From: a virus
Strand: one strand, 5' to 3'
Virus record (IMG/VR): IMGVR_UViG_3300020152_000007
Coordinates: 1 to 46,011 of that record
DNA length: 46,011 nt
Shown here: positions 1,965 to 45,102 of the stretch, piece after piece
Numbering within the stretch: the stretch's first letter is position 1
How the letters are laid out: each line of letters starts with the position of its first letter
Notes under the pieces: model-generated
What the model was told of the DNA's origin: nothing
The model's database searches: none
Seen by the model: the letters and a program-made list of their open reading frames with translations, nothing else
Translations under genes and position numbers: made by a program

Positions 1965-1993
1965 GGGACGATGATTAAAATAATCATCACCCC
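1965..1993. promoter_or_regulatory. 29-bp imperfect palindrome, copy 1
   Basis: GGGACGATGATTAAAATAATCATCACCCC, immediately after the -10 hexamer. Confidence 0.85.
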
Positions 1994-2021
1994 ATCGACA
2001 ACCTTAGAAAGGAAACACTAA

Positions 2022-2189
2022 ATGCCTGAACTATACTCCCTCTTCCGTACCGAAAACGGACAGCTTATTCATATGCAAACCGGTCACCTGGAAGAACTTC
2101 AGGACCGCATGGATAACGAAGCTGAAGACTTAACCGGGGAAGATGCAATGTTAATTCTCCCCACCGTTGCCTTCGCGCAAAACCTGTAA
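2022..2189 (+). CDS. Small hypothetical protein (55 aa)
   Basis: Hand-translated MPELYSLFRTENGQLIHMQTGHLEELQDRMDNEAEDLTGEDAMLILPTVAFAQNL. AAAGGA lies upstream. First ORF after promoter/palindrome copy 1. Below the ORF-track size cutoff. Confidence 0.45.
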   Translation: MPELYSLFRTENGQLIHMQTGHLEELQDRMDNEAEDLTGEDAMLILPTVAFAQNL

Positions 2190-2241
2190 TCATACTGGGG
2201 GAAGTGCAACACGCATTTCCCCCTAAAGAGGGGACCCACAC

Positions 2242-2463
2242 ATGCCTACAAAAACCTCGCGACCGGCCCAACGCATCAGTGACGACGGGCTAAAAGCCTG
2301 GCTAACGCAAGTCCGGCAGAGCCTTTTAAATGCCTCAATCAGCCTTCCCCCGTACAACTCCCACGCCTTCCGCATTGACCGGCTGGACGAAGCCATCGCA
2401 AAGCTGCAGTGGCTAAAATCCCGCCTGCAAGCGGAACAAACCCTTGACCAGATGAAAGGCTAA
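2242..2463 (+). CDS. Hypothetical protein (73 aa)
   Basis: ORF track; purine-rich SD upstream; C-ending codon bias typical of this arm. Confidence 0.6.
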   Translation: MPTKTSRPAQRISDDGLKAWLTQVRQSLLNASISLPPYNSHAFRIDRLDEAIAKLQWLKSRLQAEQTLDQMKG

Positions 2464-2468
2464 ACGCG

Positions 2469-2798
2469 ATGCCAAACACCTCTACAAACTGGAACCTCGT
2501 CGACAAGAACTTCAACCGCATCTCGGTCGGGGATAAGCTCCCCGACTTCCGAGGCGACCTATGTACCGTTACCGGCCTCGGTCACCCACCACGCACACCT
2601 GAGAGTTCCGGTCGCATAGAACTCGACGGTAGCCTCTACTACCCCAGCATCGTTGACTGCATCTGGCTTACCGACGAGGCACTCTACGAAGCCCAGGTGA
2701 CCGCCCTCGAACACGCAGGCATCCCGCGCAGCGACGCGCAAGGCATAGTCGACGCGACAAAGCTTCAACAAACCCGCAGTACCCCCAACCACAACTAA
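2469..2798 (+). CDS. Hypothetical protein (109 aa)
   Basis: ORF track; tightly packed after the previous gene. Confidence 0.65.
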   Translation: MPNTSTNWNLVDKNFNRISVGDKLPDFRGDLCTVTGLGHPPRTPESSGRIELDGSLYYPSIVDCIWLTDEALYEAQVTALEHAGIPRSDAQGIVDATKLQQTRSTPNHN

Positions 2799-2812
2799 GG
2801 AGCAAGCGCAAC

Positions 2813-3097
2813 ATGGAAACCGCACTTATCATCGACAGCAACCGCATTTCAGTATTCCAACTTCCCGGCAACCAGTTGCCCGAGGTCATTATCCTCACAA
2901 CCGCCGCAGGGGACAGCGTAACCTACTCCGCCCTCGGCCTCTTTGACACCGGCAGCGAAACCACGCAGCCAGACGGCAACCCCCCGTCCGACCCGGAAAA
3001 CCCCGACGCGCCCCCCGCCGAGGAAAAGTCCGGGGGCGCTGGTGACCCCGCAACCGGGAACCAGGAAGAAACCAACGAAAAGCGCAGTCTGTTCTAA
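2813..3097 (+). CDS. Hypothetical protein (94 aa) with an acidic, Pro-rich C-terminus
   Basis: ORF track; AAGGAG upstream. Confidence 0.6.
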   Translation: METALIIDSNRISVFQLPGNQLPEVIILTTAAGDSVTYSALGLFDTGSETTQPDGNPPSDPENPDAPPAEEKSGGAGDPATGNQEETNEKRSLF

Positions 3098-3148
3098 CCC
3101 TGCCTCGAGCCAGTTCCCCACCCCTCGGGGAGCTGGTTCCGGGCAGGG
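3098..3148 (+). other. Extended GC-rich stem-loop directly after a stop codon
   Basis: CCCTGCC(3098..3104)/GGCAGGG(3142..3148) enclose CCAGTTCCCC(3110..3119)/GGGGAGCTGG(3127..3136). No U-tract follows. Confidence 0.5.
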
Positions 3149-3181
3149 AAGAACCCTGCACAACAAAGGAGACCCGACAAC

Positions 3182-3511
3182 ATGGATATAAAAGCTGAAA
3201 TTCTAGCCGCCGCAGCCGAGGCCGAACTCGCGCCCCAGTGCTACATCACCGGCTGCGCACTCTACCTCTCCACTCGCACGTGCTGCGCATGGGGCGACCT
3301 CTTCATCTTTGGCGATATGTACATCTTCAACGCCAGCACCTACAAAGAAGAGGCCATCCTATCCTACCACTCCCCCGAGACCCACCGCGAACAGCGCTGC
3401 CTCATCGTCCACGGCAACGACTACTTTGAGCGCCGAGGCGTCTTCGTCATCAACAAGCGGGACGCCGAGCTTAACGCCATCGCGAAAATGTACAAGGGGA
3501 TTGAAGAATGA
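3182..3511 (+). CDS. Hypothetical protein (109 aa)
   Basis: ORF track; AAGGAG upstream; ATGA overlap with the next gene. Confidence 0.65.
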   Translation: MDIKAEILAAAAEAELAPQCYITGCALYLSTRTCCAWGDLFIFGDMYIFNASTYKEEAILSYHSPETHREQRCLIVHGNDYFERRGVFVINKRDAELNAIAKMYKGIEE

Positions 3512-3996
3512 GCAACGGAACCCCTGAACAAAAAGCCGCCGCAAAGCTCGCGCTGGCTGAACTCTTCGGCGACCTGCTAACCCCGCCACCCAAGGGCAAA
3601 CCCGGGAGGCCCAAGAAAACCGCTTCCGGGGACGGCGAACCGAAGGTTTTCAAGCCTCGGGCCTTCCCCACCTCCCCACAAACCTCGCCCTTCTTCGAGG
3701 CGACTTCCCGCGAGTACTTCATCGTCGAGCAGCACTGCCTATCGTGCGGCAGCTTTACCCGCTACGCCGAAACCAAGATGCTCCGCTACAAGGCCGTCAA
3801 GCGGAAGGACGGGCTGGCAATAGAAATCCCTTGCTGCCTACCGGCCCCGCTCGACGTACCCAGCCTTGTCACATACCGGAGCGAGAGCACAGACTTCTGC
3901 GCGCACTGCGTAGAGATAACCTCCCGGCTCGACAGCAGCACCCTGTTCGAGCTTTCTAACCCCAACACTGCACTTCAACTAAAACTCTTTAATTAA
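3508..3996 (+). CDS. Putative DNA-binding protein with an AT-hook-like motif and a CxxC...CxxC zinc ribbon
   Basis: KGKPGRPKK (nt 3592..3618) resembles an AT-hook core. CLSCG and CAHC pairs are also present. Confidence 0.6.
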   Translation: MSNGTPEQKAAAKLALAELFGDLLTPPPKGKPGRPKKTASGDGEPKVFKPRAFPTSPQTSPFFEATSREYFIVEQHCLSCGSFTRYAETKMLRYKAVKRKDGLAIEIPCCLPAPLDVPSLVTYRSESTDFCAHCVEITSRLDSSTLFELSNPNTALQLKLFN

Positions 3997-4013
3997 GCGG
4001 AGGGAACCACCAA

Positions 4014-4346
4014 ATGAGCACACCAAACCAAACTGACAAAGACCGCGTCGAGGCGCTACTCGAAGAAGCGCGACAACGCGCCGAAGCGCAAAAGGCGCGG
4101 GGCGAAACACCTGACCCCATCCACCCGGACGAGCTTTTGCGCGCTGCCGCCGACGGAGAGCTTAAGCCCCTCTACACCGTACACGTATTTCCAGTGCCCG
4201 GTGCCGAGGGCCTCCTCGCTCCCGTCCTACACGTCACCGCAGACGGACGGCAGTTCTCCCGCGTTGACATCGCGGAACACCTCACCTCCCTCGCCATAGC
4301 CCTCGTAACGGGCGAGGGAGCAATCCTCAACGGAAAGGGACACTAA
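4014..4346 (+). CDS. Hypothetical protein (110 aa)
   Basis: ORF track; GGAGGG upstream. Confidence 0.65.
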   Translation: MSTPNQTDKDRVEALLEEARQRAEAQKARGETPDPIHPDELLRAAADGELKPLYTVHVFPVPGAEGLLAPVLHVTADGRQFSRVDIAEHLTSLAIALVTGEGAILNGKGH

Positions 4347-4347
4347 C

Positions 4348-4707
4348 ATGAAAAACACCCTGCTCGCTTGCCTGTTTAAGCGCATCTTTGGGAAGAAAAC
4401 GCCAGTGCTTACAAAGCCAGTCCTCCCGCCCGGCTACTACACCGTCAAGGCGTGGCACCCCGACGACTGTTACCACAGTTCCTCGCACTGCCGCCCCGGC
4501 ACCATCGTGTACCTTACGAAAGCCCTTGACCTCAGGGAGGACGGGACGGCTGTCGGATACCTGTTCATGTTCGACGAGGTAACGTGTATCTGGCGCTGGA
4601 CTTGCGTCTATCGCGCTTGGCTTCGCCCCCTGCGCGGGATGCGACTCAGCACCTTCACTGCCGCACATCCACAAGCGCCCACCTTCGAGGAGGTTCCACA
4701 TGTCTAG
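4348..4707 (+). CDS. Hypothetical protein (119 aa)
   Basis: ORF track; starts 1 nt after the previous stop. Confidence 0.6.
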   Translation: MKNTLLACLFKRIFGKKTPVLTKPVLPPGYYTVKAWHPDDCYHSSSHCRPGTIVYLTKALDLREDGTAVGYLFMFDEVTCIWRWTCVYRAWLRPLRGMRLSTFTAAHPQAPTFEEVPHV

Positions 4708-4993
4708 AGGCCGCACCGCTAACACCGAGAAATCTATCCGCTGGCGGATTGAGGTCAAGGAGCGGATTGCCGCGCAGGTCGAACTGCTCCTGCTCGACCC
4801 ACTTACCGGCGACATCGCTTACGGCGCCCGTTCCGCGCTCGTCAACCAGCTCCTCCGCGAGTGGCTCGACAAGCAGCGCCGGGCCAACCCCGTTATTGTG
4901 GAGGAAACCGAAGAGGACCGCCGCGAAGCTCGAGGCGACCGGGAACCCGAAATGCGCTTTCAGGCCGACCTCGACAAGAAGGACTTTGGCTAA
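4700..4993 (+). CDS. Putative ribbon-helix-helix (Arc/CopG-like) DNA-binding protein
   Basis: GAGGAGG 7 nt upstream. KSIRWRIEVKERIAAQVELLL...YGARSALVNQLLREWL fits a strand-helix-helix pattern. Confidence 0.55.
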   Translation: MSRGRTANTEKSIRWRIEVKERIAAQVELLLLDPLTGDIAYGARSALVNQLLREWLDKQRRANPVIVEETEEDRREARGDREPEMRFQADLDKKDFG

Positions 4994-5136
4994 TGTGGAT
5001 TCTCCTGTTCATCACGTTATCCGGGGAGTATGTCATCGACAGATTCCCCACGCAGGGGCAGTGCCTAGCCGAGGCCCGACTCTACAACCAAGGCAGTTTT
5101 CGGGATGAAATCTTTACATGTCGTAAGGCAAAATGA
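4993..5136 (+). CDS. Small protein with a hydrophobic N-terminus (47 aa)
   Basis: TAATG overlap with the previous gene. MWILLFITLSG... plus 2 Cys. Internal start within track ORF 4861..5136. Confidence 0.4.
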   Translation: MWILLFITLSGEYVIDRFPTQGQCLAEARLYNQGSFRDEIFTCRKAK

Positions 5137-5235
5137 AAACTTCACGTACAGCGGCACATAACTCGTGCTGTTGTGCGGGGGGCTTTCCCCAGCGACTGGC
5201 GGCGCTTACCGCCTAACTTTACGGAGAAAAAAGAA

Positions 5236-5877
5236 ATGACTAAGAAATGCGTTATCATAGCACTTATGGCACTGTTCACCCTACCAGTTTACGCGGGTAA
5301 CGACCGCGACGACTGCCCCGGAAATAGCTGTCACGGCGGTCAAGGTGGTCAGGGCGGTGATGGGGGTGCAGGCGGCGACGCTAATTCCCTCGGCATCGGG
5401 ATTGGTGTTGGCGGCTCAGCTAATGCCACCGGCGGCGACGCAACCGCTATTGGCCTGGGCGGCAAGGGCGGCGATGCCAGCGCCATCAGTGTAGGCGTGG
5501 GCGGTGAGGGTGGTAAAAGTTCCTCCGACGCCGATGCCAGCGCCAAGGCCGGGGCAAATGCCGGCTCTTCGAGTGGCGGTAATTCGCTCACCGTCAACGA
5601 GGGAGACTATGAGGCCCGTGCCATCCCGGTAGGCAGTTCTATCGCCGCCGGTGCTAACGGCACCTCGAAATGCCTGAAACATGCCAGCACCTCTGGTAAC
5701 CTGTTCTTTGTCTCGTTCGCACGCGCTTCCCACGAGCCTGACTACATGTGCTGGGCACAAGAACTGGGCGCTCCCGAGGTTGCAATACAGATGGCCTGCA
5801 ACGACTCCGGGTCGTTCCGTAAGGCTTACAACCAAATCGCCCGTCGGCACGGCAAGGAAGAGTGCCTGAGCGAGTAA
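5236..5877 (+). CDS. Secreted glycine-rich repeat protein
   Basis: The ATG at 5236 has GGAG 9 nt upstream. Signal-peptide-like MTKKCVIIALMALFTLPVYA. GG(D/S)A..(I/L)G.GVGG-type repeats. Cys-containing C-terminal domain. Confidence 0.7.
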   Translation: MTKKCVIIALMALFTLPVYAGNDRDDCPGNSCHGGQGGQGGDGGAGGDANSLGIGIGVGGSANATGGDATAIGLGGKGGDASAISVGVGGEGGKSSSDADASAKAGANAGSSSGGNSLTVNEGDYEARAIPVGSSIAAGANGTSKCLKHASTSGNLFFVSFARASHEPDYMCWAQELGAPEVAIQMACNDSGSFRKAYNQIARRHGKEECLSE

Positions 5878-6002
5878 CCGACCTCTCGCAAAGGGGCCGT
5901 TGCTAAACATGGAGAGAATCGCGACTCTGTGAAGTGTCTAGCCTGTAGTGCCTTCGGGCGCTATGGAGTAGGTACTTTCCCCCAACCGTTAAGGAGCTTT
6001 AA

Positions 6003-6233
6003 ATGAAAATACTCGCCACAATGCTTATCGCCGCCATCGCAATTCTGTTCTACCTGATGGTTAATCGGCCCGACCTGCAGCACGTCACCGACGCTTGCCT
6101 CAAGCAGTCTTATTTCGACATCTGCATGTTCAGGGAAGGCGCAACCCCCGAACTCTGTGAAGCCGCTGCAAAGTCAGCTTCCCTCCGCCCAAAGCACTCT
6201 GTAATGCCAACCTGCATTGAGGTGACCGAATGA
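6003..6233 (+). CDS. Membrane-anchored small Cys-containing protein (76 aa)
   Basis: AAGGAG 6 nt upstream; N-terminal TM segment ILATMLIAAIAILFYLMV; 4 Cys. Confidence 0.65.
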   Translation: MKILATMLIAAIAILFYLMVNRPDLQHVTDACLKQSYFDICMFREGATPELCEAAAKSASLRPKHSVMPTCIEVTE

Positions 6234-6394
6234 ACGAAGAAGACTTGCGCGCGGCCTTCGAGGCCAAACAGCTAATCCTCGGCGAAAGCCGGGAAGAACT
6301 CACCCGTACTCCCAGCGGCTACGAGCGTGAGGAAATTAATGCCGACTGGGTTTGGTTCAAGGAAGGAGTACGCTATGCAACAGAACGGAGATAA
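6230..6394 (+). CDS. Possible small ORF (54 aa)
   Basis: ATGA overlap with the previous stop. Hand-translated MNEEDLRAAFEAKQLILGESREELTRTPSGYEREEINADWVWFKEGVRYATERR. Overlaps the next gene by 20 nt. Confidence 0.3.
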   Translation: MNEEDLRAAFEAKQLILGESREELTRTPSGYEREEINADWVWFKEGVRYATERR

Positions 6395-7457
6395 GCCGGA
6401 AGAAACTCGGGTAGTGCCAGTAGAGCCGACAAACGATGAATTTGCCAAGAAAGTTATGGAGCACATTCCTGTACGCGAAAATACAAGGCTATTCAATCCA
6501 CCAACCCACGAGGTAGCCACCCCACAGCAGCAGGAGTTCGTGCAAACAGTACCCGACCACTGCGACCGTATCGTGTGGCGAGGGCACTATTACCACTTAC
6601 CGCTTGCAGCACAGCCACAAGAGGAGCTCGTGGAAGTATGCGCCGAAGCGTATCAGGTGGTCGGCTCCCTGCTTTCTGATGTTGGGGCGCTTGATACTGA
6701 CAAAGCCGAGAAGATACTGGACAATTTAGGTGAACAGCGCATGATTCATAAAGACGTACTCCCTTGGCCCTCGTTTGCGCAGCCGCAAGAGGAGCCGGAG
6801 GCCGAGCTTGGGAACGAAATGAGCCTCGACGATTTCAAAGAACTGCTTACCTCGTACGGAGGTGGCAGGTTTGTCGAGCTTCACTACCGTGGGCACTTAG
6901 CTTTTGGCATACTCGTCGCAGAGATGGCAGAGGGTGATAGTATGCGGCAGGTTGCTGCTGAGATTGTGTCGAAGTTAAACGCAGCCCCGCAGCAGCAAGA
7001 CACTGAGTCCTTACAACCGCAATGGAACAACCTTCCATCTGAGATAAAAGACTGGCATAAGCGTATTGAATCGCGGTTGCAGGGTGAGCCGGTGTTGTAT
7101 GCAAGAAAGAGTGAACTTGCGCAGTTGGAGTTCAAACACATCGAGAGCGAATACATCCTGACAGCGAGCACACGCCAAGACGAGGTGTATGACGCCCCCC
7201 TCTTCACCCAACCACTCACCGCTGACGCCATCTTTAATCAAGGGATAGAGGAAAGCGTGAATCGAGCAGCCGCCTTCGTCGCAAACAATGAGTGTGAGAT
7301 TGACTTGGCTGGACTTGCGCAAGAAATACGTAATGGAAAGCGCCCCACTGATATGGTGACGATAAGCAGGACAAAGTTGGAGGAAGCCTTCTCGGATGAT
7401 GGTGTAAATCTGACTAAGTTGGTAGAGGTTGTCTCCCGCGAACTGGAGGGGAAGTGA
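6375..7457 (+). CDS. Hypothetical protein (360 aa)
   Basis: Track ORF 6327..7457. The ATG at 6375 has AGGAG 7 nt upstream. Third codon positions are visibly more A/T-rich than in flanking genes. Confidence 0.7.
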   Translation: MQQNGDKPEETRVVPVEPTNDEFAKKVMEHIPVRENTRLFNPPTHEVATPQQQEFVQTVPDHCDRIVWRGHYYHLPLAAQPQEELVEVCAEAYQVVGSLLSDVGALDTDKAEKILDNLGEQRMIHKDVLPWPSFAQPQEEPEAELGNEMSLDDFKELLTSYGGGRFVELHYRGHLAFGILVAEMAEGDSMRQVAAEIVSKLNAAPQQQDTESLQPQWNNLPSEIKDWHKRIESRLQGEPVLYARKSELAQLEFKHIESEYILTASTRQDEVYDAPLFTQPLTADAIFNQGIEESVNRAAAFVANNECEIDLAGLAQEIRNGKRPTDMVTISRTKLEEAFSDDGVNLTKLVEVVSRELEGK

Positions 7458-8948: not shown

Positions 8949-8949
8949 C

Positions 8950-9078
8950 GTGGACAAGGGTGCAATTGCGTTTATAAAATTCATAGTAGTTATGATGCTG
9001 CTGATGTCTATTCTCGGGCCGATTTTCGTACTCGCTATGCGCTGGGTAACTTCCTTCCCTGTAACCGGAGGTTGTTAA
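8950..9078 (+). CDS. Possible small membrane protein (42 aa, GTG start)
   Basis: VDKGAIAFIKFIVVMMLLMSILGPIFVLAMRW... fills an otherwise empty gap. Confidence 0.25.
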   Translation: MDKGAIAFIKFIVVMMLLMSILGPIFVLAMRWVTSFPVTGGC

Positions 9079-9079
9079 C

Positions 9080-9268: not shown

Positions 9269-9269
9269 T

Positions 9270-9678: not shown

Positions 9679-9707
9679 GGGACGATGATTAAATTAATGA
9701 CCGTCCC
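9679..9707. promoter_or_regulatory. 29-bp imperfect palindrome, copy 2
   Basis: GGGACGATGATTAAATTAATGACCGTCCC, starting about 7 nt after the -10 (near the predicted transcription start). Confidence 0.85.
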
Positions 9708-11420: not shown

Positions 11421-11424
11421 GCCA

Positions 11425-12090: not shown

Positions 12091-12119
12091 TTGACACCTG
12101 CATTTAATGGGGATATGAT
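12091..12119 (+). promoter_or_regulatory. Sigma70-like promoter overlapping palindrome copy 3
   Basis: TTGACA (12091..12096), 17-nt spacer, TATGAT (12114..12119). Confidence 0.6.
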
Positions 12120-12137
12120 TTTTTTAATCATCACCCC
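12109..12137. promoter_or_regulatory. 29-bp imperfect palindrome, copy 3
   Basis: GGGGATATGATTTTTTTAATCATCACCCC; contains the -10 hexamer of the 12091 promoter. Confidence 0.8.
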
Positions 12138-19318: not shown

Positions 19319-19347
19319 GGGGCGGTGATTAAATCAATTACCGTCCC
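19319..19347. promoter_or_regulatory. 29-bp imperfect palindrome, copy 4
   Basis: GGGGCGGTGATTAAATCAATTACCGTCCC, 5 nt after the polymerase stop codon. Confidence 0.85.
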
Positions 19348-19697: not shown

Positions 19698-20899
19698 GGA
19701 ATCACGAGAACTGGCTTAAAGCTTTTATCGAATACGCCAGCTTTGGCGAAGCCCCGCTAAAGATGCTCTTTTGGACCGGCGTTTCGACAGTGTGTGGGGC
19801 GCTGCGTCGTCGGGTTTGGCTGGATATGAAATACTTCCAGTGGGTACCGAATATGTACATTGTCATGGTGGCACCTCCCGGTATTGTCTCCAAGTCGACA
19901 ACTGCGAATGTGGGGATGAACCTCCTCCGCCGTGTCGATGGCATTGTCTTCGGGCCAGACGTTGTAACGTGGCAGGCGCTAGTCGAAAGCATGGCGAAGA
20001 GCACTGAACTTGTGCTCGACAAGACGACGGGAGAATACCTCCCGATGTCCTGCATCACCATCGCTTCTGACGAGTTCGGCAACTTTCTCAACCCCGACGA
20101 CCGGGAGATGGTGGATGTGCTTGTGAGTCTGTGGGATGGTAAGCGTGGCTCCTTCACCAAGACGACAAAGATGTCAGGCAATGACCTCATCGAGAATCCG
20201 TGGATTAACCTTATTGCCTGTACCACCCCCGCGTGGATAAGCGGCAATTTTCCCGAGTACATGATTGGGGGCGGTTTTACCTCCCGCTGTGTTTTCGTCT
20301 TTGCCGACTCGAAGCGGCAGGAAATCGCCTACCCTGACGAGAATGTCCCGCCAAATTTCCTGGCAATGCAGGGTTCGCTTATAGAGGACCTAAAGCAAAT
20401 CGCTGAGCTTTTGGGAGAAATGAAACTTACCGACGACGCCCGTGAGTGGGGCAGGGTGTGGTACACGAATCACTGGCAGAATCCCCCGACCGGACTCAAC
20501 CTCGAGCAGTTCGGCGGGTACCTCGCCCGGAAGCAAACTCTCATTCACAAACTTGCAATGGTCGTTTCAGCCGCCCAACGCAACACCCTCGAAATCACTG
20601 CCGCAGACCTCGAGTTCAGCGCCGAGAGCATCAGCGCCCTCGAGCAAGACATGCCGAAGGTATTCCTCCGCATCGGTCAGGACAAAATTACAAAAGGCAC
20701 TACCGACATTACAGCCTACGTCCAGGCTCACGGTCGGGTGTCCAAAAACACCCTCTTCAAACACTTCGTCCGCACACTTAGCTTCAACGATTTCGAGGCT
20801 TCGTTGCGCGGGGCTGTACAAGCGGGCTTCGTACATTACCAACAACAGGGGAACGAGCAGTATGTCGTTAAAGGGGGTCTAGGTGGCGTACAAACCTGA
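19694..20899 (+). CDS. DUF3987-like P-loop NTPase (putative replicative helicase/primase-associated ATPase)
   Basis: Deviant Walker A VAPPGIVSKST; Walker B ITIASDEFGNF; LIACTTP and GGGFTSRCVFVF blocks. Confidence 0.5.
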   Translation: MRNHENWLKAFIEYASFGEAPLKMLFWTGVSTVCGALRRRVWLDMKYFQWVPNMYIVMVAPPGIVSKSTTANVGMNLLRRVDGIVFGPDVVTWQALVESMAKSTELVLDKTTGEYLPMSCITIASDEFGNFLNPDDREMVDVLVSLWDGKRGSFTKTTKMSGNDLIENPWINLIACTTPAWISGNFPEYMIGGGFTSRCVFVFADSKRQEIAYPDENVPPNFLAMQGSLIEDLKQIAELLGEMKLTDDAREWGRVWYTNHWQNPPTGLNLEQFGGYLARKQTLIHKLAMVVSAAQRNTLEITAADLEFSAESISALEQDMPKVFLRIGQDKITKGTTDITAYVQAHGRVSKNTLFKHFVRTLSFNDFEASLRGAVQAGFVHYQQQGNEQYVVKGGLGGVQT

Positions 20900-21161
20900 G
20901 AGTGCATTTCGGTTCGTGGTTAACTGTCAGAAGGTTTGCTGTCCGTACGAGTATCTCCGACAAACCCGCAGGGAGACCTCACAGAATCTTGCCGACTTTC
21001 TTGGCTTCTCTGTGAGGACTATCCGGTACTGGCGACTGCGCTACCGCGAGGGGGTGGTGAAGTGCGAACGCCTGCACGATTGCCCCCACCGCCCCGACGC
21101 GCAGCCTATTACTCTTCCTCGTCAGCGAAAGACTCGGAAACTCCCGCCGCAAGGTTCCTAG
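20883..21161 (+). CDS. Putative helix-turn-helix DNA-binding protein (92 aa, GTG start)
   Basis: SQNLADFLGFSVRTIRYWRLRYREG is HTH-like. AAGGGGG 5 nt upstream. Last gene of the plus-strand arm. Its 3' end overlaps the convergent giant ORF by 53 bp. Confidence 0.5.
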   Translation: MAYKPESAFRFVVNCQKVCCPYEYLRQTRRETSQNLADFLGFSVRTIRYWRLRYREGVVKCERLHDCPHRPDAQPITLPRQRKTRKLPPQGS

Positions 21162-24100: not shown

Positions 24101-27100
24101 ACCGGCGAAAGAACACCGAGACCTTGCAAATGCAGGGCCAAATCTACTGGAGTTCTCCAGATATGAATAGCCCCGACTTCGGAGAGTTCCAGCGGATTGC
24201 GGATGTTCAGATACACTGGAATAATGTTCATCCCAGTATCTTGCGGCCGCATAGTATCTCCGCCTACGGCATTCCGTTGTCCCCGGAACTCATCAAGTGC
24301 AATCCGGGCGTGAACTTCTTCCGGGGCTGACCTATACAGTCGGGCATGTGCGGCGAGTAAATCACCAAAGTGCGCACCAATATCTCCGCTATTGAAAGTG
24401 TGGATATCAGCCTTCGTTCCGTGGAACATTACCAGCGGACGACCGCTCGCCGTGACCACTTTACTTGCATTCGCCGGGTCATTCTCCCAGTCACCAAACC
24501 AAGCCTTGAAAAACGGGCTCCGCTCGCGATGCTTCACCCAAGCCGCAATAGCTTCTTTCTGTTGAGCCTCCTCTGCCCCTGCTGTCCGGGCGCCGTTCTG
24601 CGGGTCGGTGTCAAGCTGCTTCCGGACCCGCATTTTAAGCATCTCCACCATGCGCAGGTGAGCCGTGTTCAGGTCGTTACCGCGAATCAACTTATACAGC
24701 TCTTGCTTTTGCTTCACGCTAAAGCTACCGAAGGTCACAGCCTTACGGAGTTTCTGCGCCATGTAATTGTCGCGAGTCATAGGCAAAGTGTCCTTCGCCT
24801 TATCCAGAGCCTCCTTTACTTCCCCACTTACCGAGGAGGCGAATTCCTGCGGCGCAACCAGCTGGCTCAATTTCCCGAGCGATTGTATCCAGGCCTCAAA
24901 GCTGGTCCCGGCCGAAATCCGCCAGGTTTGCCCATTGTCGAGCTTTAGCCCCTTTTTCAGCGCAATGAAAAGCTTCCGCAACGAGTTCTGCACCTTTTCC
25001 AGCGTCGAACCCATAAGCTGCTGCCGAACCTTTTCCTCCGCTTCAACATGCTTAATTCCGCCGCTGAAGTACTCCCCCTTGCCGAGGGCAGTATCCCTAC
25101 CGAGTCCTTTCTCATGCGCATACCTGGCCATCTTTTCAGCCATGAACTCGTCGAAACTCAGATAGTCCTCAACCAGCGCATTCGTCAATTCATCAATTTG
25201 CTGCGAAATCGCCTGCCGCTCTTCCGGCACCCGTGTTACAGCCATCCGTGCCCGAAGCGTTGCGATGTCCTTATTCCCATTCGAGACAACGCGACGAACA
25301 AAGCTCTCCGCATTCATCCCCGAGTACCCACCCATTGCCTTGACCAGTTGCCGCTGCACTGCCATCGCCGGGGACATCCAGTGCTGTTGGAACCACTCCG
25401 CCGACTGCGTTTTCATTTGCGCCCGCAGTTGATTGTATTCCTTCGCCAGCTCAGCTTGCTCCGGATTCAACCCCGCGATAACCTCTTCGCTTATTCTTCC
25501 CTGCCGTTGTTCGAGGGTAAACGCTGATTGTACTTCCGGCGCCACGCCTTCAAGGAAGCGGTGCATCGTAAGTGCATGTCCAAACTCATGGTAGACATTA
25601 TAGAAAGCTTTCGCTTTGGTATGCTTGTTAAAACTGCCGGCATTGAGTGTACCTTCTTCAGTTGCTGAAAAGTTCCGTACGAAAGCTGGGATAATGAGGT
25701 ATTCCCCACTAGCCAGTTTCTGCGTCGTACCCACCGCTTGCCGGGTGCTCTGCGTTTCATTTGCCAGCACAATCGTTGCATCGGGCATGAAATCCTGACG
25801 GAGCTTTTCATACAGCTCGTGATAGCCTGCCAGTACATCGTCGCTGCGGTCCGCAGTAGGCTCTCCGATTACATACGTAGCCGGCTTTGTTTTGACTTTA
25901 CCGAGGGGCTGGCCGACCTGCTCCGCTGGTCCATAGGCAATACGACGCTGACTTCTCGGAACCGCATCGTTTGGGTTCGGCTCATAATTCTCCGCATTCA
26001 CCCGCACTTTCAGCGTGTTCCCAATTTGCGCGTCGGAGCTTAAAGCTTGGTCCACACCCACCGCACTGGTCCCATCGTTCGCCTCGCCGAAAGGCAAGAC
26101 TTTCTGCACCTGTGCCGCTTGGACTTGCACCGCCAGCTCTTCGTCTGCCAGCGGGTCAGGCAACTGGATAAGGGCTTCGCGGTCGGGTGGGAGGTCCGGT
26201 AAATCTTGGGACGTTGATTGATTTAATGACCGTCCCGTTAAATCACCTTCAGCGTTCAGCTCATTCAGAATATTTTGCAGAACCTCTGAGCCTTCCTTAT
26301 CGCCGGCAGTTGTGGCCGTGGCCAGTTCTGTCTCCAGCCCGTCGATGGGATTTTCCATCGGCAGCTCAGGTTCCGTTCGTTGGGGCAACAGAGCATCAAT
26401 TCCCTTCGCCGTCGCGCCACCAAGCACTGCTGCAAATGGAGTCTGTATCGCCGTGTCGACGACGCTCGCTCCCATCTCTTCGAGGAATTGTCCCAGCGGT
26501 TTGTCGGGCGTGTCGATGGCTTGCTTAATTCCTTCCTGCACAATGGTCGTAGGAATTTCCGTCATCAGCTCCCGGCCGACATACTTCATCAGCATTTTGC
26601 CGAAGGCTTCTTGCCCGAGGTCTTTAATCAACCCACCAATCGGGGAAAGCTCAAACGCCGTACCAACACCTGCCTGCAGGCCTGACGAGACCAGCGCACG
26701 TTCGTGACCGGAACCTTCATCCCGGGATTCCCCGTATGCCGGTAGCATTTCCAGCGGTGCCGCAATTGACAACGCCGCAGCTGGACTCTTCGTCGCCACA
26801 CCAGCAGCGATTGCCGGAGCCATTGTCGCTACGCTCGTTGCAACCCCCTGCGCATGCCGAAGCGGTTCACTCGGATTCGCCGGCAAAGCATCCTGCAGTT
26901 CGTTCTGCATCGCGCTTCGTTGCGCTGCCATCTGCGTATCATGCGACATAATCTCAGTGTTGCGCAGGCTTTCGGCCGCACCGTAGACTTGCGTGTATGC
27001 CTGTTGGAAGGGAATTCCAGAATCGACGAGTGCCCGAATCTGCAAGTTCTGCTCCCGGGTCAGCCCGGTGAAGCCTTCGGTATCAAGCGGTTTCGGCCGC

Positions 27101-37989: not shown

Positions 37990-38018
37990 GGGACGGAAAT
38001 TAAAATAATCACCGTCCC
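37990..38018. promoter_or_regulatory. 29-bp imperfect palindrome, copy 6
   Basis: GGGACGGAAATTAAAATAATCACCGTCCC, 27 nt downstream of the capsid-gene stop and 17 nt upstream of the glycosyltransferase ATG (minus-strand direction). Confidence 0.85.
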
Positions 38019-42419: not shown

Positions 42420-43900
42420 CCTCCAACACGTAAAGGTTTATATTCGGATTCATCATCTATCAACTCGTATTCCCCGTCAATCGTTACTGCCGCTCTCAGG
42501 TGCGGGGTCAATTCCGTGATGCCGATAGCAAGCGCATCTAAAATGTCGTCGTGCTGACTATCATCCAGCGGGTCATATTCGTCCATCTGGGTGACGAGCT
42601 TAGACATCGAGGGGTGAATGTGCAAATGTCCGAAGTTTACCAGCCCGGACAGAGTTTGCACAATGCGGTCAGATTTGCGCCGTTTGTCCTGAATCTTACT
42701 TACCGGCAGGTACAGCCGACGCTTCTTCATTTCCTCTTCTAGGTACCACGCAAGAATCCGTTGGTAGCTGATAGACTCGACTGCTGCCCGCATCGGGGAG
42801 AACTCCAGCATCATATTGAAAAAGTGCATCGCTACAATGTCTGGCATCATAGCCTGTTCCGCCTGATACGCCATCACATACACATCAGGCCCAATCATCC
42901 CAATCGCCATAACTACGCAATCGTCGGCCTTCGGGCTGTCCGAACTCGCCGGGTCGATGGAGATAATCTTCAGCATCCCATGCGGCAGAATCTCCCAGAA
43001 TTTCAGCTTTTCGATTTCGAACGTTTTGCCCTGGGCTGCGACGAGCGAACATTCTTTTTCCCGCATCCAGATATGATACTGTCCGCGGTTAATTGCCGCT
43101 TGCTTCTCGCGCAATACGACTTCCGTTGGCCAGCGCGCTTCCCAGCGGCTTTTCCCGTCCGGGTGCGCTTTGTCGCTGTAGTCGAGTATCCCGTATCGCC
43201 GCCCGTTCCACTGCGGGTCCTTGAGGCACTTTTCGATTGCGTCCTGCTTGTTGAGCGGGGTTTGCAGGAACACGGCCTTGGCGAGCGGACAGTCCGTTTC
43301 CGGGGCGAGGGAGTTGAGCAACGCGCCGAAGATGAGCGCCTCGAGCTTCTTCCTTTGCTCTTCCGTCGCGCAATTTTCCTCGTTAAGAACGTCGTCAATG
43401 ATGATAAGGTCAGGTCGATAATCGTCCGGGTTAAAGCCGCGAATTTGTCCTGTAATCCCCATCGCGAGCAGAGTAATCGGAGTGTCTTCAACATCATGAA
43501 AAATTTCGCAGTGCTCATCGGTCCACTTTTCCCCTTTCCTTAGCCCGTACGTCTGGGCATACTTCTTGTTGTACATAATCTGGCGACGGAGCCAGCGGAC
43601 GCTCATCATCGCGTGCTGTTGACTCACCGAGACATACATGATGGTGCGGGAGACAGCATAACCCACCCGCTGGGCCGTGAAGACCCGGAGCAGCGATGTC
43701 TTCGCCCCGTCCCGGAAAACCTCGAAGGCATTGTATCGGGAGCTGCTGTAAAGCAGTTGCCCCATCTCCCGGTGGAATTCGGGGGAGTCCTGCCGGAAGG
43801 TTTTCGGGAACATGAGCTTGCCAAACATTTCAAGGCTCTGCGCCCCGAGAAGAACCGCCTCTTCCACGCTGATGTTGATGTTATCAGTTAGGGCGTCCAT
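42410..43900 (-). CDS. terL: Terminase large subunit
   Basis: ATPase motifs FRDGAKTSLL and DLIIIDDVLNEE; C-terminal nuclease-like IISIDPASS...DDCVVMAIG. The ATG at 43900 has GGAG 7 nt upstream; the track start at 43918 has no SD. Confidence 0.85.
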   Translation of the reverse strand: MDALTDNINISVEEAVLLGAQSLEMFGKLMFPKTFRQDSPEFHREMGQLLYSSSRYNAFEVFRDGAKTSLLRVFTAQRVGYAVSRTIMYVSVSQQHAMMSVRWLRRQIMYNKKYAQTYGLRKGEKWTDEHCEIFHDVEDTPITLLAMGITGQIRGFNPDDYRPDLIIIDDVLNEENCATEEQRKKLEALIFGALLNSLAPETDCPLAKAVFLQTPLNKQDAIEKCLKDPQWNGRRYGILDYSDKAHPDGKSRWEARWPTEVVLREKQAAINRGQYHIWMREKECSLVAAQGKTFEIEKLKFWEILPHGMLKIISIDPASSDSPKADDCVVMAIGMIGPDVYVMAYQAEQAMMPDIVAMHFFNMMLEFSPMRAAVESISYQRILAWYLEEEMKKRRLYLPVSKIQDKRRKSDRIVQTLSGLVNFGHLHIHPSMSKLVTQMDEYDPLDDSQHDDILDALAIGITELTPHLRAAVTIDGEYELIDDESEYKPLRVGGCP

Positions 43901-44397
43901 ATGTGAACTCCGGTGCATTTGCCGGGAATCGTCAGGGCGTCGAGGGGGTGCGCGAGGAGCCGGGTAGGCTCAGGCCACGGCACCATCCCGTCAAACCACT
44001 TAACGATTTCGAGCATTTTGAATTCCCACAGGTTGGCGGGGAATATGTGTTGAAGAATCGGCAGATACAGTTTCCGTAGCTGCCACCAAGCGTCTGTCGT
44101 GTGCTGATACTTCACCTCGACAATGATTATCTTTCCGCCCTTAAGGTCGAACAGCAACCCGTCGGGCTGGCGCCAGTGCACCCCCAACTCGTCGCTGTAG
44201 TAGAGCCAAGGACTCGGCACGTACCTATCCCCGAAACTCATGAGTAGGTGCTCTTGTACTTTCTGCTCATAGCGGACGCCCTGCAGCCGCCTCCCTGTTA
44301 CCCGGCGGTGGGTGGCGAAGGGAGGGGGGCCGTTGGCAATCCGCGCCCAGCGAACCCGGCCGACCGCCTTAAAGTTCGGGGGCGTGGCCGGTAGCAT
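43888..44397 (-). CDS. PD-(D/E)xK-type nuclease-like protein (169 aa)
   Basis: QPDGLLFDLKGGKIIIVEVKYQH fits a D...(D/E)xK core. Lies between the TerS-like gene and TerL. Confidence 0.45.
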   Translation of the reverse strand: MLPATPPNFKAVGRVRWARIANGPPPFATHRRVTGRRLQGVRYEQKVQEHLLMSFGDRYVPSPWLYYSDELGVHWRQPDGLLFDLKGGKIIIVEVKYQHTTDAWWQLRKLYLPILQHIFPANLWEFKMLEIVKWFDGMVPWPEPTRLLAHPLDALTIPGKCTGVHIWTP

Positions 44398-44983
44398 CCT
44401 TTGTCCCCACTGTCACAGCGTTGTCAGGGTTGTGAACGTCGAGCACCTGCGGAGTCACATCGACCGTCTGCCCGACACTGAACATTCCTTGCCGGGCGTT
44501 GGCCAGCGTCTCCCGGCTGACGGTGAACACGTTGACCTGCGTTTGGGGAGTTTGGCCGCCGGGGTTCTTCTGCGAGGCGGGAGCGTAGCCAGCCCGGTGC
44601 ATGATTTTGTCGAAGGCGTCGAGGACAAACTTCGGGTCCTCGGTGCGCTGGAGGGTCGTAGTGAGCTTTTCCGTCACCACATCGGCAAGCGCATTGAGCT
44701 TCTCCGGCACACTTGAGGCGATGTGGGAGAACACCTGTTCTTGCCGTTCCTTCAATTTCGCCTGAAATAAATCGGTGTGAATTAAGGTACTGAGCCAAGC
44801 TTGCGAGTACCCGAAGTAATCGGCGCATTCCCGGAGGGCTTTCTCGGGGTTTGTAATCATCCAGTTAATCACCATGTCGTGAGTGTGCGACAGGCTCTTC
44901 ACTTGGATGTGCTCTCCGGTGCCTTTGGCCGGAACGTCGTCCAGGCTGATGTCGGGTATTTCGTTAATGTCATTAAGGTTCAT
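44369..44983 (-). CDS. Terminase small subunit candidate (204 aa)
   Basis: The internal ATG at 44983 has AAGGAG 8 nt upstream. First gene of the late arm. HTH-like ALRECADYFGYSQAWLSTLI. The track extension to 45166 would run through the palindrome and promoter. Confidence 0.4.
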   Translation of the reverse strand: MNLNDINEIPDISLDDVPAKGTGEHIQVKSLSHTHDMVINWMITNPEKALRECADYFGYSQAWLSTLIHTDLFQAKLKERQEQVFSHIASSVPEKLNALADVVTEKLTTTLQRTEDPKFVLDAFDKIMHRAGYAPASQKNPGGQTPQTQVNVFTVSRETLANARQGMFSVGQTVDVTPQVLDVHNPDNAVTVGTKDATGHAPEL

Positions 44984-45012
44984 GACGGTCGCTCCTTTAC
45001 GTGTTGCCTTGC

Positions 45013-45042
45013 AGTATAGGGGCGGGGGCGTGGGCTTGTCGA
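45013..45042 (-). promoter_or_regulatory. Candidate promoter of the late (minus-strand) operon
   Basis: Minus strand reads TCGACA (45042..45037), an 18-nt spacer, then TATACT (45018..45013). Confidence 0.3.
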
Positions 45043-45073
45043 GGGGCGTTGCCGGGGGAGTGTGGTCGGGGGT

Positions 45074-45102
45074 TGGGGTGGTGATTAATTTAATCTCCGT
45101 CC
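45074..45102. promoter_or_regulatory. 29-bp imperfect palindrome, copy 7
   Basis: GGGGTGGTGATTAATTTAATCTCCGTCCC, in the divergent gap between the late operon and paralog B. Confidence 0.85.

Follow-up and report, generated by a model that had tools for sequence, protein, structure and literature searches.

Dispersed 29-bp imperfect palindromes in a phage genome: candidate operators for a phage-encoded regulator

What function maintains seven copies of a 29-bp imperfect palindrome dispersed around a phage genome? The DNA analyzed here (termed the window) is a viral stretch of 46,011 nucleotides, of which bases 1-127 are identical to bases 45885-46011, corresponding to a circular assembly of 45,884 bp; the host genome is Methylocaldum-like. 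The explanation judged best, with middling confidence, is that a symmetric DNA-binding regulator encoded by the phage uses the palindromes as operators and that two of them double as terminator hairpins.

Occurrence and conservation of the palindrome

Searching the whole window for GGG-N6-ATT-N5-AAT-N6-CCC with at most one mismatch yields seven matches (Table 1), whereas chance predicts a mean of 0.08 and none of 100 dinucleotide-preserving shuffles reaches seven. The seven copies listed in a preliminary description of the window are therefore real, their sequences being as given there, and the shuffled-genome control proposed with it does not produce 29-mers of this similarity at comparable frequency; six of its coordinates are exact, but copy 7 occupies 45075-45103 rather than 45074-45102. 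The palindrome is the top-ranked repeat family of the genome, and similarity among its copies is confined to about 35 nt. The palindrome has an A/T-rich 5-bp center, and the half-site on either side of it comprises two blocks, (T)GGG outside and (G)ATT inside, about one helical turn apart. In a scan with a half-site weight matrix, the 14 half-sites occur solely in pairs separated by 5 nt; their scores run from 13.5 to 21.2 bits, and the top isolated half-site reaches 14.4 bits. Six of the copies are non-coding, as had been stated: copy 7 falls inside a mechanically called ORF (44369-45166), but orthologues place the true gene start at 44983, whereas copy 5 is truly coding and specifies TGRSLNQSTSQ.

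Table 1. Palindrome copies, predicted promoters and candidate regulator genes in the window
Feature	Position	Strand	Description
Copy 1	1965..1993		begins directly after P1 -10; operator-like
Copy 2	9679..9707		begins 6 nt after P2 -10
Copy 3	12109..12137		left arm contains P3 -10 (TATGAT, 12114-12119)
Copy 4	19319..19347	+	6 nt past DNA polymerase stop codon
Copy 5	26208..26236		within 2078-aa polyvalent-protein gene, codons 370-380
Copy 6	37990..38018	-	27 nt past major capsid-gene stop, 17 nt ahead of next start codon
Copy 7	45075..45103		divergent control region between gene A (45276-45785, +) and late operon (-)
P1	1935..1964	+	sigma70-type TTGACA-18-TATAAT (12/12); upstream of genes 2022-9647
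P2	9644..9672	+	sigma70-type TTGACA-17-TAATAT (10/12); upstream of genes 9742-12081
P3	12091..12119	+	sigma70-type TTGACA-17-TATGAT (11/12); upstream of genes 12174-19313
Predicted late promoter	45013..45042	-	TCGACA-18-TATACT (10/12); upstream of gene 44983-44369 and of terminase, portal and capsid genes
Leading candidate regulator	4700..4993	+	97-aa early protein, ribbon-helix-helix-like pattern
Alternative candidate regulator	20883..21161	+	92-aa basic protein, weak helix-turn-helix matches

These sites are under strong selection at the sequence level. Conservation among relatives, another check that had been suggested, was examined in a phage of about 75% DNA identity, where all seven copies are found at syntenic positions: their arms are 91% identical (15 of 168 positions differ) and their spacers differ at 7 of 35 positions, as compared with 40-56% identity at 4-fold degenerate sites, i.e., with neutral sites near saturation. 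The arms of copy 4 show no differences, copy 5 is the most degenerate of the relative's copies, and copy 1 with its promoter forms an island of similarity within otherwise unalignable DNA; other hairpins of the window (at 2196 and 5023) are not kept. Since the two phages diverged, every copy has kept its particular imperfections, which argues against recent homogenization. The sites also co-vary by lineage: half-sites are shared within a genome and differ between lineages (GGGACGGTGATT, GGGCGGnTAAT, GGGCAAATAAC, GGGCGGGGATT, GGGGACGTTAATT and GCGCnGATT), and one lineage-specific sequence common to all copies of a genome points to a common trans-acting reader. Counting against an operator, the total length of the palindrome also varies by lineage (27 versus 29 bp).

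Promoter association and arm pairing

Although the preliminary description rightly recognized the element and its place in intergenic gaps, it missed the association of the copies with promoters, which are predicted here from matches to consensus hexamers. On the + strand of the early arm, three of the five best sigma70-like sites (P1-P3) abut or overlap a palindrome (copies 1-3). Given where copy 1 begins, it resembles an operator spanning about -6 to +23, and the position of copy 2 places the predicted transcription start at its first G. In the relative, both hexamers of P1 are kept while its spacer and flanks have diverged, and the -35 hexamer of P2 is kept.

At least seven lineages show this layout of promoter plus palindrome, and the palindrome sequence is specific to each. 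In L144, L145, L146, L147, L149 and L151, the lineage's own palindrome begins 0-4 nt downstream of TTGACA-17/18-TATAAT; in a variant layout, seen at P3 of the window, in L002, at the pre-late site of L144 and in L153, the -10 hexamer lies inside the palindrome. Sites homologous to P3 have the layout of the window in L002, and in L144 and L145 have a -10 that abuts the palindrome. The sites thus stand at fixed positions from promoter hexamers, and the same holds for the late region, where the center of copy 7 lies about 83 nt upstream of the predicted transcription start: a -35-like hexamer follows the first base of the palindrome by 61-63 nt in the window, the relative, L144, L146 and L147, so that this spacing is kept in five of six lineages. 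The exception, L145, in which the late promoter is 16 nt farther from the palindrome, counts against the operator explanation. Promoters homologous to P2 carry shorter or compacted hairpins in L144, L145 and L002, and in L144 and L002 the two half-sites lie 6-7 bp closer together, a compaction that also counts against the operator explanation, since a rigid dimer site would accommodate it less readily than a hairpin.

Is it then the sequence or the pairing of the arms that is maintained? Pairing amounts to 82.7% of cells within copies and to 82.5% after 3' arms have been exchanged at random between copies, and permutations give as few mismatches as observed in 1824 of 5040 cases for the window (0.36) and in 4084 of 5040 for the relative (0.81); hence differences between arms are not compensatory, as had been noted. 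Non-pairing positions are mostly kept in the relative, where new ones arise. Because the two arms of any copy form no more pairs than do arms drawn from different copies, and because imperfections are conserved, selection acts on sequence, not on pairing. On the sense strand the promoter-associated copies show 3 G.U pairs versus 17 mismatches, and the pre-late copy shows 0 versus 10 (i.e., a poor hairpin). Against an operator, all seven copies are nonetheless predicted to fold as RNA (-10.5 to -22 kcal/mol).

Copies 4 and 6 behave as RNA hairpins. Both have G.U wobbles on the transcribed strand only, a signature that family-wide amounts to 42 wobbles on the sense strand versus 1 on the antisense strand and that tracks the direction of transcription in both arms of the genome. 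The sense strand of copy 4 forms a perfect hairpin with two G.U pairs (-22 kcal/mol), and the DNA polymerase gene is followed by a lineage-specific hairpin in every lineage examined. Copy 6, whose sense-strand hairpin carries a T-rich tail (ATTTCT) and is thus terminator-like, differs from its counterpart in the relative by one symmetric A>C/T>G double change that keeps pairing, and is orthologous to a hairpin with a T-rich tail found 3' of the capsid gene across the whole phage family. Like intrinsic (Rho-independent) terminators, both copies lie just past highly expressed genes and form stable sense-strand hairpins, followed by a T-rich tail in most relatives; the ordinary terminators of one genome, however, have no sequence in common, and five of the seven copies here have disruptive mismatches and no T-tract. 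Terminators of another, canonical kind occur in the window as well, at 144-127 and 14204-14220.

Consequently an account based upon DNA alone is incomplete, and the seven copies, which had been treated as a single class, are not one functional class. Recognition of double-stranded DNA by a symmetric protein, as had been proposed for all of them, is favored for copies 1, 2, 3 and 7 by the lack of arm covariation, the retained imperfections and the fixed distances to hexamers. Under the operator explanation, a regulator bound to duplex DNA would time transcription by the host sigma70 RNA polymerase. At P1, P2 and P3, near-consensus sequences presumably used as promoters, the palindrome lies over the -10/+1 region, so that occupancy would silence transcription of early and replication genes; in the late region, where the promoter is weaker and conserved, a regulator bound about 82 nt ahead of it could act as an activator; and the copies following the DNA polymerase and capsid genes would end or attenuate transcripts as sense-strand hairpins, to which a bound protein may add a roadblock.

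Known systems and competing explanations

The closest analogues are the phi29 p4 sites, mycobacteriophage stoperators and T4-type PeSL cassettes; the 29-bp palindrome itself has no named counterpart in Rfam, in agreement with the earlier statement that no named element has such a consensus. The p4 sites are imperfect inverted repeats (5'-CTTTTT-15 bp-AAAATG-3') that are read chiefly at their outer ends, with A-tracts between; they overlap early promoters and precede a late promoter whose -35 is poor, and p4 itself is an early protein that represses early and activates late transcription (PMC3100819). The likeness consists in imperfect inverted repeats of comparable span placed over early promoters and upstream of a late promoter. 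Unlike the dispersed copies here, however, all four p4 sites share a single intergenic region, with none following a structural or replication gene and none acting as an RNA hairpin; the sequences are unrelated, and no p4 homologue was detected in this phage.

Stoperators are asymmetric sites of 13-14 bp, each recognized by a protein monomer and aligned with the direction of transcription; they occur in temperate phages that possess an immunity repressor, with which they co-diversify between lineages. Here the sites are 29-bp palindromes, and neither an integrase nor a CI-type repressor was found among the proteins scanned; what is shared is many copies of one site dispersed in short intergenic gaps, with an early promoter overlapped. 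Published work describes, for Cluster A mycobacteriophages, many dispersed repressor sites in short intergenic gaps, one over the early promoter and others stopping elongation (PMC9283540), and co-diversification of site and repressor across lineages (PMC6550527).

PeSL (promoter-early stem-loop) cassettes of T4-type phages combine a strong sigma70-like promoter with a GGGG...CCCC stem-loop that varies in position relative to -35 and -10; they sit between small genes of unassigned function and are associated with indels (PMC2839356, PMC4122927). By this analogy the copies would act at the RNA level: the hairpin would stop or attenuate read-through or protect mRNA ends, the adjoining promoter would restart transcription, and the copies would be alike through shared origin and recombination, driving the shuffling of modules. 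The comparison, which was also drawn in the preliminary description, is apt for copies 1-3, at which strong sigma70-like promoters adjoin a GGG...CCC stem-loop placed differently with respect to the hexamers from lineage to lineage, as in PeSL subclasses (PMC2839356), and an indel of two ORFans (2022-2463) adjoins copy 1; copies 4-7 are not covered. Every copy folds, copies 4 and 6 act as sense-strand hairpins, and the compacted P2 variants are still hairpin-forming. Yet PeSLs number about 50 per genome, conserve about 100 bp, lie in hyperplastic regions and have stem-loops that are effective terminators, whereas here there are seven copies that share the ~35-nt palindrome alone, four of them with no adjoining promoter. 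Moreover, the promoter-associated copies lack T-tracts and show no selection for pairing; P1 and P3 transcripts would begin inside or after the left arm; sequence conservation far exceeds the needs of a hairpin; each copy's imperfections have been retained; and the distance by which the pre-late copy precedes its promoter is conserved. A PeSL-like explanation is accordingly possible but rather unlikely.

It is improbable that the copies are instead RNA hairpins read by a sequence-specific RNA-binding or cutting factor (an anti-terminator, a processing nuclease or an enzyme of RNase III type) that sets transcript boundaries and stability. Such a factor would explain why copies occur at module boundaries (copies 1, 2, 3 and 6 being 17-36 nt ahead of start codons), the family-wide hairpin signature 3' of the capsid gene and the shared lineage-specific sequence, which implies a sequence reader. 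But the positions of mismatches vary by copy, so that RNA shapes would differ where duplex DNA is uniform; stems of 12-15 bp are short substrates for RNase III; the pre-late copy is upstream of its promoter; transcripts from the promoters adjoining copies 1 and 3 would not include the left arms; and Rfam yields no match.

Signals for priming or replication, recombination or nicking sites, or sites of cruciform formation, i.e., functions of the DNA other than in transcription, seem quite improbable as well: GC-clamped arms with an A/T-rich center favor extrusion, the copies are dispersed round the genome, and the phage encodes its own primase, Sak4-like annealing protein and exonuclease, but imperfect arms disfavor cruciforms, the fixed distances to -10/-35 hexamers across lineages are left unexplained, and the strand-specific G.U pattern follows transcription. 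Least of all can the sites be expected to serve a host transcription factor or to be a REP-like repeat that the phage took over from its host: although palindromes in core promoters are typical of host repressors and lineage differences could reflect different hosts, a scan of one genome from each of 185,579 bacterial and archaeal species finds no multi-copy genome (40 single, taxonomically scattered matches), and half-site length and sequence change among closely related phage lineages.

Candidate regulators

Ribbon-helix-helix operators (those of Arc, Mnt, CopG and NikR) are palindromic or repeated and span about 20-30 bp; dimers of dimers bind them via a beta-ribbon, alternate residues of which set specificity. 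If the palindromes are operators, their reader may be the product of 4700-4993, which would itself be transcribed from predicted P1 and which combines a basic N-terminal arm, an alternating strand (IRWRIEV), a helix, a YGARS turn and a second helix, a pattern suggesting a ribbon-helix-helix protein, albeit a putative one given that matches are sub-threshold. Among related small early proteins the helices are invariant and the outward-facing strand residues are lineage-variable. Weak matches of this family converge on CopG-type ribbon-helix-helix proteins (top PDB match, E = 0.2); RHH_1 is its commonest Pfam match (9 of 120 members, Pfam matches being below threshold); and one member bears the JGI name CopG/Arc/MetJ. 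A ribbon-helix-helix model has a pLDDT of 56, and comparison with Arc gave a null result. In L149 both strand residues and palindrome are the same as in the window; counting against this protein as the reader, L146 and L147 have similar half-sites and different strand residues.

Of four candidate binders named in the preliminary description, this protein and that of 20883-21161 are plausible, whereas 14384-15670 encodes a ParB_N and methyltransferase fusion and 3508-3996 has no family match. The 20883-21161 protein matches HTH_29 (E = 0.0012, below Pfam's cut-off), and its gene is kept 3' of the primase gene in distant lineages.

Occurrence and conservation of the palindromes

The pattern GGG-N6-ATT-N5-AAT-N6-CCC matches the window at seven positions, as compared with a mean of 0.08 matches in dinucleotide-preserving shuffles, none of which (0 of 100) reached seven. 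This bears out the seven copies enumerated in a preliminary description made from the sequence alone, whose coordinates are exact for copies 1-6, though not for copy 7, which starts one base further to the right. Its claim that six of the seven copies are non-coding likewise stands, inasmuch as orthologues place the start of the first late-operon gene downstream of copy 7; the exception, copy 5, corresponds to codons 370-380 of the gene for a 2078-aa polyvalent protein, where it encodes TGRSLNQSTSQ within a conserved protein stretch. Among the repeat families of the window sequence, this motif is the largest. When searched for with a half-site weight matrix, its 14 half-sites are found only as pairs separated by 5 bases; 13 of them score 16.6-21.2 bits, the best isolated half-site scoring 14.4 bits. 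Within the half-site G1-3, A10 and T12 are invariant and positions 4-9 variable, and the 5-bp centre is A or T in 33 of 35 bases.

Coordinates of the palindromes and associated features in the window (for palindromes, the first base)
Feature	Coordinates	Strand	Content
Copy 1, promoter-linked	1965
Copy 2, promoter-linked	9679
Copy 3, promoter-linked	12109
Copy 4, after polymerase gene	19319
Copy 5, in-gene	26208
Copy 6, after capsid gene	37990
Copy 7, pre-late	45075
P1	ends 1964	+	TTGACA-18-TATAAT
P2	ends 9672	+	TTGACA-17-TAATAT
P3	12091-12119	+	TTGACA-17-TATGAT; -10 within copy 3
Early and replication genes	~775 to 21161	+	pyrophosphatase, exonuclease, Sak4-like, ParB_N-methyltransferase fusion, thymidylate synthase, DNA polymerase, primase
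Structural genes	~44983 down to 21109	-	terminase, portal, capsid, tail proteins, 2078-aa polyvalent protein
2078-aa polyvalent protein	21109-27345	-	ART-PolyVal ADP-ribosyltransferase domain at aa 967-1133
First late-operon gene	44983-44369	-
Candidate regulator	4700-4993	+	97 aa
Alternative candidate	20883-21161	+	92 aa, basic
ParB_N-methyltransferase fusion	14384-15670	+	ParB_N-like domain, N6/N4 DNA methyltransferase
Gene A	45276-45785	+
Gene B	171-659	-
Promoter of gene A	45180-45208		sigma70-like
Promoter of gene B	750-722		sigma70-like
Terminators between genes A and B	54-68; 144-127	+; -	back-to-back
C-rich box	45046-45074	-	ACTCCCCCGGCAA
Segment adjoining copy 1	2022-2463		two small ORFans; private hairpin at 2196-2222
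Intergenic segment after copy 4	19350-19505		three AAACGCATT repeats; TGGACA-17-CATTAT
Terminal overlap	1-127; 45885-46011		identical

In keeping with the genome-wide element proposed in that description, all seven copies recur at the same gene junctions in the closest relative (IMGVR_UViG_3300020131_000002; 45,131 bp, also a circular assembly), whose DNA is approximately 72-77% identical to the window and whose polymerase, capsid and terminase are 89-93% identical as proteins. Between these two genomes, 4-fold degenerate sites in four genes are just 40-56% identical, whereas changes are found at 15 of 168 arm positions of the palindromes (and at 7 of 35 spacer positions), so strong purifying selection acts on the seven copies. 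Copy 1, together with its promoter hexamers, forms an island of 90% identity amid unalignable flanks. By comparison, two other early-region GGGG...CCCC hairpins (2196 and 5023) are not conserved in the relative. Beyond the window, a motif scan of IMG/VR retrieved just this relative and one chance match, and a metagenome scan with the polymerase yielded no further close relatives; further lineages (denoted by L-numbers) were collected via gene B, which neighbours the late control region, and via a candidate regulator (see below).

Two segments beside the palindromes may be mentioned here. An indel starts directly after copy 1: a pair of small ORFans, along with a private hairpin, has no counterpart in the relative. 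Recombination at the palindrome would fit this, albeit as a single case, the other six copies being at conserved junctions. The intergenic segment after copy 4, which is nearly invariant in the relative, has three short repeats and a promoter-like site upstream of the primase operon, and might serve as a further element of a regulatory or origin-like kind.

Promoters and the late control region

The three best gene-linked sigma70-like matches of the early arm are located at copies 1-3; their -35 hexamers are retained in the relative, the spacers drifting. Within the further lineages retrieved, a promoter matching at 11-12/12 positions always occurs at the junction after the first early gene, with the lineage's own palindrome 0-4 nt after the -10 in L144, L145, L146, L147, L149 and L151. 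L153 places the -10 of a 12/12 promoter in the palindrome centre. P3 homologues abut a palindrome in L144 and L145 and have their -10 inside it in L002. Because transcription from P1 and P3 would begin within the left arm or past it, copies 1 and 3 would not form complete hairpins in the RNAs of their own promoters. No convincing sigma70 promoter was found directly at copies 4, 5 or 6. At the P2-equivalent promoter of two lineages (L144:4500-4640 and L002:1850-1960) the half-sites overlap at AATT, so that the palindrome is 6-7 bp shorter than other copies of the same genome; such compaction is not easily reconciled with a rigid dimer site.

Copy 7 lies between gene A and the late operon, 32 nt upstream of a predicted late promoter (TCGACA-18-TATACT). 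A -35-like hexamer (TCGACA, TTGACC or TTCACA) begins 61-63 nt on from the palindrome's first base in L144, L146 and L147 as well as in the window and the relative, and is followed 16-18 nt later by the -10. The palindrome centre is thus ~82 nt upstream of the predicted late start, a spacing kept in five of six lineages; in L145 the promoter is 16 nt farther away, and in the distant lineage L066 the -82 spacing of the pre-late copy was not seen. Copy 7 and its homologues make poor hairpins on the sense strand, and the kept distance to the downstream promoter points to a role at the DNA level. Activators can work from a position ~82 nt upstream. One that works from such an upstream position is phi29 p4 (PMC3100819).

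Between copy 7 and the late -35 there is a C-rich box, which occurs at the same place in L144-L147 and which is kept across lineages although the palindrome changes, suggesting a second conserved factor or promoter element. Genes A and B--convergent paralogues of 38% identity, each with a sigma70-like promoter and with back-to-back terminators between them--are kept beside the late control region in all lineages; neither has recognisable fold relatives, despite family-wide conservation.

Sequence, pairing and the gene-end hairpins

The two arms of a copy match each other no better than they match arms from other copies. Among the 14 copies of the two genomes, standard pairs occur at 82.7% of arm positions, as compared with 82.5% when 3' arms are dealt among copies, and 258 of 500 such shuffles were at or above the observed pairing; when arm partners were fully permuted, mismatches were as few as those observed in 1824 of 5040 arrangements (0.36) in the window and, in the relative, in 4084 of 5040 (0.81). 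Non-pairing positions vary by copy and mostly are kept across both genomes, with new ones arising in the relative. This is the pattern that would be expected of two half-sites, each matching a consensus read on duplex DNA, and it favours the earlier suspicion that duplex DNA is what is recognised.

A different picture emerges at the gene ends when non-Watson-Crick positions are sorted by copy class and by transcribed strand.

Non-Watson-Crick arm positions by copy class (G.U versus mismatch)
Copy class	Sense strand	Antisense strand
After capsid gene (6 lineages)	11 vs 2	0 vs 13
After polymerase gene	5 vs 2	0 vs 7
Promoter-linked	3 vs 17	9 vs 11
Pre-late	0 vs 10	4 vs 6
In-gene	0 vs 6	1 vs 5

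For 38 distinct post-capsid hairpins in relatives, G.U pairs number 42 on the sense and 1 on the antisense strand (p = 1e-11), with a mean of 4.4 T in the following 8 nt. Since this sense wobble excess opposes the A+C-rich skew of the coding strand, it indicates selection for an RNA hairpin. This hairpin is terminator-like and family-wide, copy 6 being its orthologue in the window, and its tail is mostly T-rich in the relatives. Copy 4 has the same sense G.U signature and the most stable fold, and in every lineage examined a hairpin resembling that lineage's post-capsid hairpin directly follows the polymerase gene. In L013-L091 the post-capsid hairpin often retains an outer ATGGGG...CCCCAT, followed by a T-run, while its loop varies and includes TTCG and GNRA tetraloops.

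In common with intrinsic terminators, all seven copies form stable, G+C-rich sense hairpins (-10.5 to -22 kcal/mol, the strongest being copy 4 at -22 and copy 6 at -18.4), but as a set they lack the U-run directly after the stem: the tails of copies 1, 2, 3, 5 and 7 are not T-rich, those of copy 6 (ATTTCT) and copy 4 (ATGTTCGTCT) are partly so, and a terminator scan called none of the seven. Moreover, selection for sense pairing is seen for the post-capsid and post-polymerase copies, and not for the promoter-linked, pre-late or in-gene copies. No curated RNA family matched the window at E <= 1 (Rfam 15 covariance models).

The interpretation preferred here is that the palindromes are operators for an early phage regulator and that the gene-end copies serve also as RNA hairpins; this is judged about equally likely to be right or wrong. 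A rather unlikely alternative is that they are PeSL-like, that is, recombining cassettes in which a strong promoter is fused to a terminator stem-loop. PeSLs combine a strong promoter with a terminator stem-loop, whose position relative to the hexamers is variable, and recombination occurs between cassettes (PMC2839356, PMC4122927). Copies 1-3 and their homologues do join a promoter to a stem-loop and thus fit in form, and the compacted P2 variants and the ORFan indel adjoining copy 1 also favour this alternative. However, four copies are without an adjoining promoter, none being present at copies 4, 5 and 6 and that of copy 7 being 32 nt off; and, rather than cassette-scale similarity, the copies share ~38 nt, their spacers and the DNA upstream of -35 differing. 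Nor would such cassettes, whose T-tracts are missing here, explain sequence-level selection without pairing or the site upstream of the late promoter. A factor that reads the palindromes as RNA is improbable.

Lineage-specific sites, candidate regulators and related systems

Within a genome all copies have one sequence, whereas lineages differ from each other; in other words, the promoter-linked, pre-late, post-polymerase and post-capsid copies co-vary, sharing a lineage-specific half-site.

Half-sites by lineage
Lineage	Half-site
Window, the relative, L149	GGGACGGTGATT
L144	GGGCGGnTAAT
L145	GGGCAAATAAC
L146	GGGCCGGGGATT
L147	GGGCGGGGATT
L151	GGGGACGTTAATT
L153	GCGCnGATT
L005/L066 contig	GTGGAnATTATA

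Individual quirks have been kept since the window and the relative diverged, so this shared sequence is not due to recent homogenisation, and the simplest account would be a common trans-acting reader co-evolving with its sites. A DNA role outside transcription is very improbable. That the reader is a host factor is more improbable still: as regards a host REP-type repeat, the motif gave 40 single matches, scattered over unrelated taxa, in the genomes of 185,579 species, and never occurs more than once in any of these, which makes a host repeat system unlikely as the reader.

The leading candidate for a phage-encoded reader is a 97-aa early protein conserved in L144-L147; its family comprises at least 158 small metagenomic proteins. 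From a basic N-terminus the 97-aa chain runs through an alternating strand (IRWRIEV), a first helix (AAQVELLLLDP) and a YGARS turn into a second helix; hardly any variation is seen in the helices or in the strand residues that face inwards, while the outward-facing strand residues differ by lineage (R-R-E, D-K-R, N-K-Q, F-R-G, S-K-S, E-K-R and R-H-Q). A first profile search of PDB was uninformative, and a comparison with P22 Arc was null; a deeper, 120-sequence profile gave weak CopG-type matches, with a CopG-family ribbon-helix-helix protein at the top (E = 0.2, not significant alone) and a ribbon-helix-helix antitoxin third. RHH_1 is the commonest Pfam match among members (9 of 120; best E = 0.011, sub-threshold), one member is named CopG/Arc/MetJ by JGI, and the monomer model, though poor (pLDDT 56), has two visible helices. 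Taken together, these likenesses suggest that a ribbon-helix-helix fold is likely; the pairing of this protein with the palindrome is hypothetical. A code relating strand residues to half-sites was sought over seven lineages, which are too few, and L146 and L147 disagree; L149 has the same strand residues and palindrome as the window, but is a close relative. An alternative candidate is the 92-aa basic protein, with weak, sub-threshold helix-turn-helix matches. Gene B, as a third candidate, was rejected: its model is good (pLDDT 86) but has no PDB structural match (best E = 0.34), and its product has no Pfam or PHROG match.

No palindrome family was found in L150, L152 or L154 under the detection settings used. 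The distant lineage L150, which has a homologue of the candidate regulator and no GGG-type palindromes, contains GATAC-N8-GATAC direct repeats (46-76, 1104-1121 and 5686-5703), two of which overlap just upstream of a promoter; these may be a different type of site for the candidate-regulator family.

From the observed layout, selection pattern and co-variation, the following scheme of binding, binder identity, promoter use and direction of regulation may be inferred for the operator interpretation. Host sigma70 polymerase would start at the near-consensus promoters P1-P3, transcribing the candidate regulator from P1; as this early phage protein accumulated, it would bind the palindromes, occluding the -10/+1 region of P1-P3 and, from ~-82, helping the weaker late promoter. 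The post-polymerase and post-capsid copies would end or attenuate transcripts as RNA hairpins and, because they keep the lineage's operator sequence, probably are bound too, perhaps as roadblocks. A bolder, and unlikely, extension is that one small phage regulator diversifies together with its palindrome, the pair serving as a 'regulatory barcode' throughout a large family of uncultivated phages that have an SU10-like capsid module: a single 29-bp sequence would act in two forms--as a duplex operator or activator site at promoters and as a sense-strand hairpin at the polymerase and capsid gene ends--so that, in a lytic phage without its own RNA polymerase, the control of initiation would be tied to the same protein as termination or read-through.

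Mycobacteriophage stoperators are asymmetric 13-14-bp sites oriented with transcription, whereas the sites here are 29-bp palindromes. Like a stoperator or operator network, these are dispersed and largely intergenic, three lie over the -10/+1 of near-consensus promoters, and site sequences change in concert across copies between lineages; in place of a cognate repressor there are the two candidates, whose DNA-binding-fold matches are sub-threshold. As in a phi29 p4-type switch, the in-silico layout has an inverted repeat that overlaps early promoters and also precedes a late promoter whose -35 is imperfect; no p4 homologue was recognised by Pfam or PHROG among the early proteins scanned. By analogy, the working principle would resemble that of phi29 p4 sites and stoperators, and the anatomy that of PeSLs, but differences in site sequence, symmetry, dispersal and dual use, with no homologous regulator found, make the palindromes a member of none of these. 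A phage-encoded regulator with dispersed operators would follow a familiar logic; what would be unusual is an operator sequence common to gene-end terminator hairpins.

A scan of ~50 proteins recognised no RNA polymerase, sigma factor, integrase or CI-type repressor, and in such a phage the palindromes bear on how early, replication and late transcription are ordered. The circuit that they outline is concrete and testable: a site overlaps each of three near-consensus promoters, another lies upstream of a weak late promoter, and the same sequence recurs in two gene-end hairpins. This design recurs, with lineage-specific sequences, in many metagenomic relatives. The finding is real and family-wide, and for this group of uncultivated phages it yields a regulatory map that can be tested; it would represent a system whose specificity evolves like that of an immunity system, and would furnish compact promoter/operator pairs with orthogonal specificities. 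It would also provide a candidate host link to Methylocaldum, tentatively hinted at by one encoded protein, which matches an NCBI 'Methylocaldum sp.' protein at 100% identity.

The ends of the window overlap exactly over 127 nt, which implies a genome of 45,884 bp that was assembled as a circle; a like overlap, again of 127 nt, is present in the contig of the relative. A megablast search with 8 kb matched no GenBank phage, relatives at the protein level being distant, and a tRNA scan of the window found none. The ParB_N-methyltransferase fusion is kept in all relatives, and no link between it and the palindromes was found. Structural genes have Pfam SU10_MCP, SU10_portal and SU10_adaptor matches, and the 2078-aa polyvalent protein is probably an ejected virion protein.
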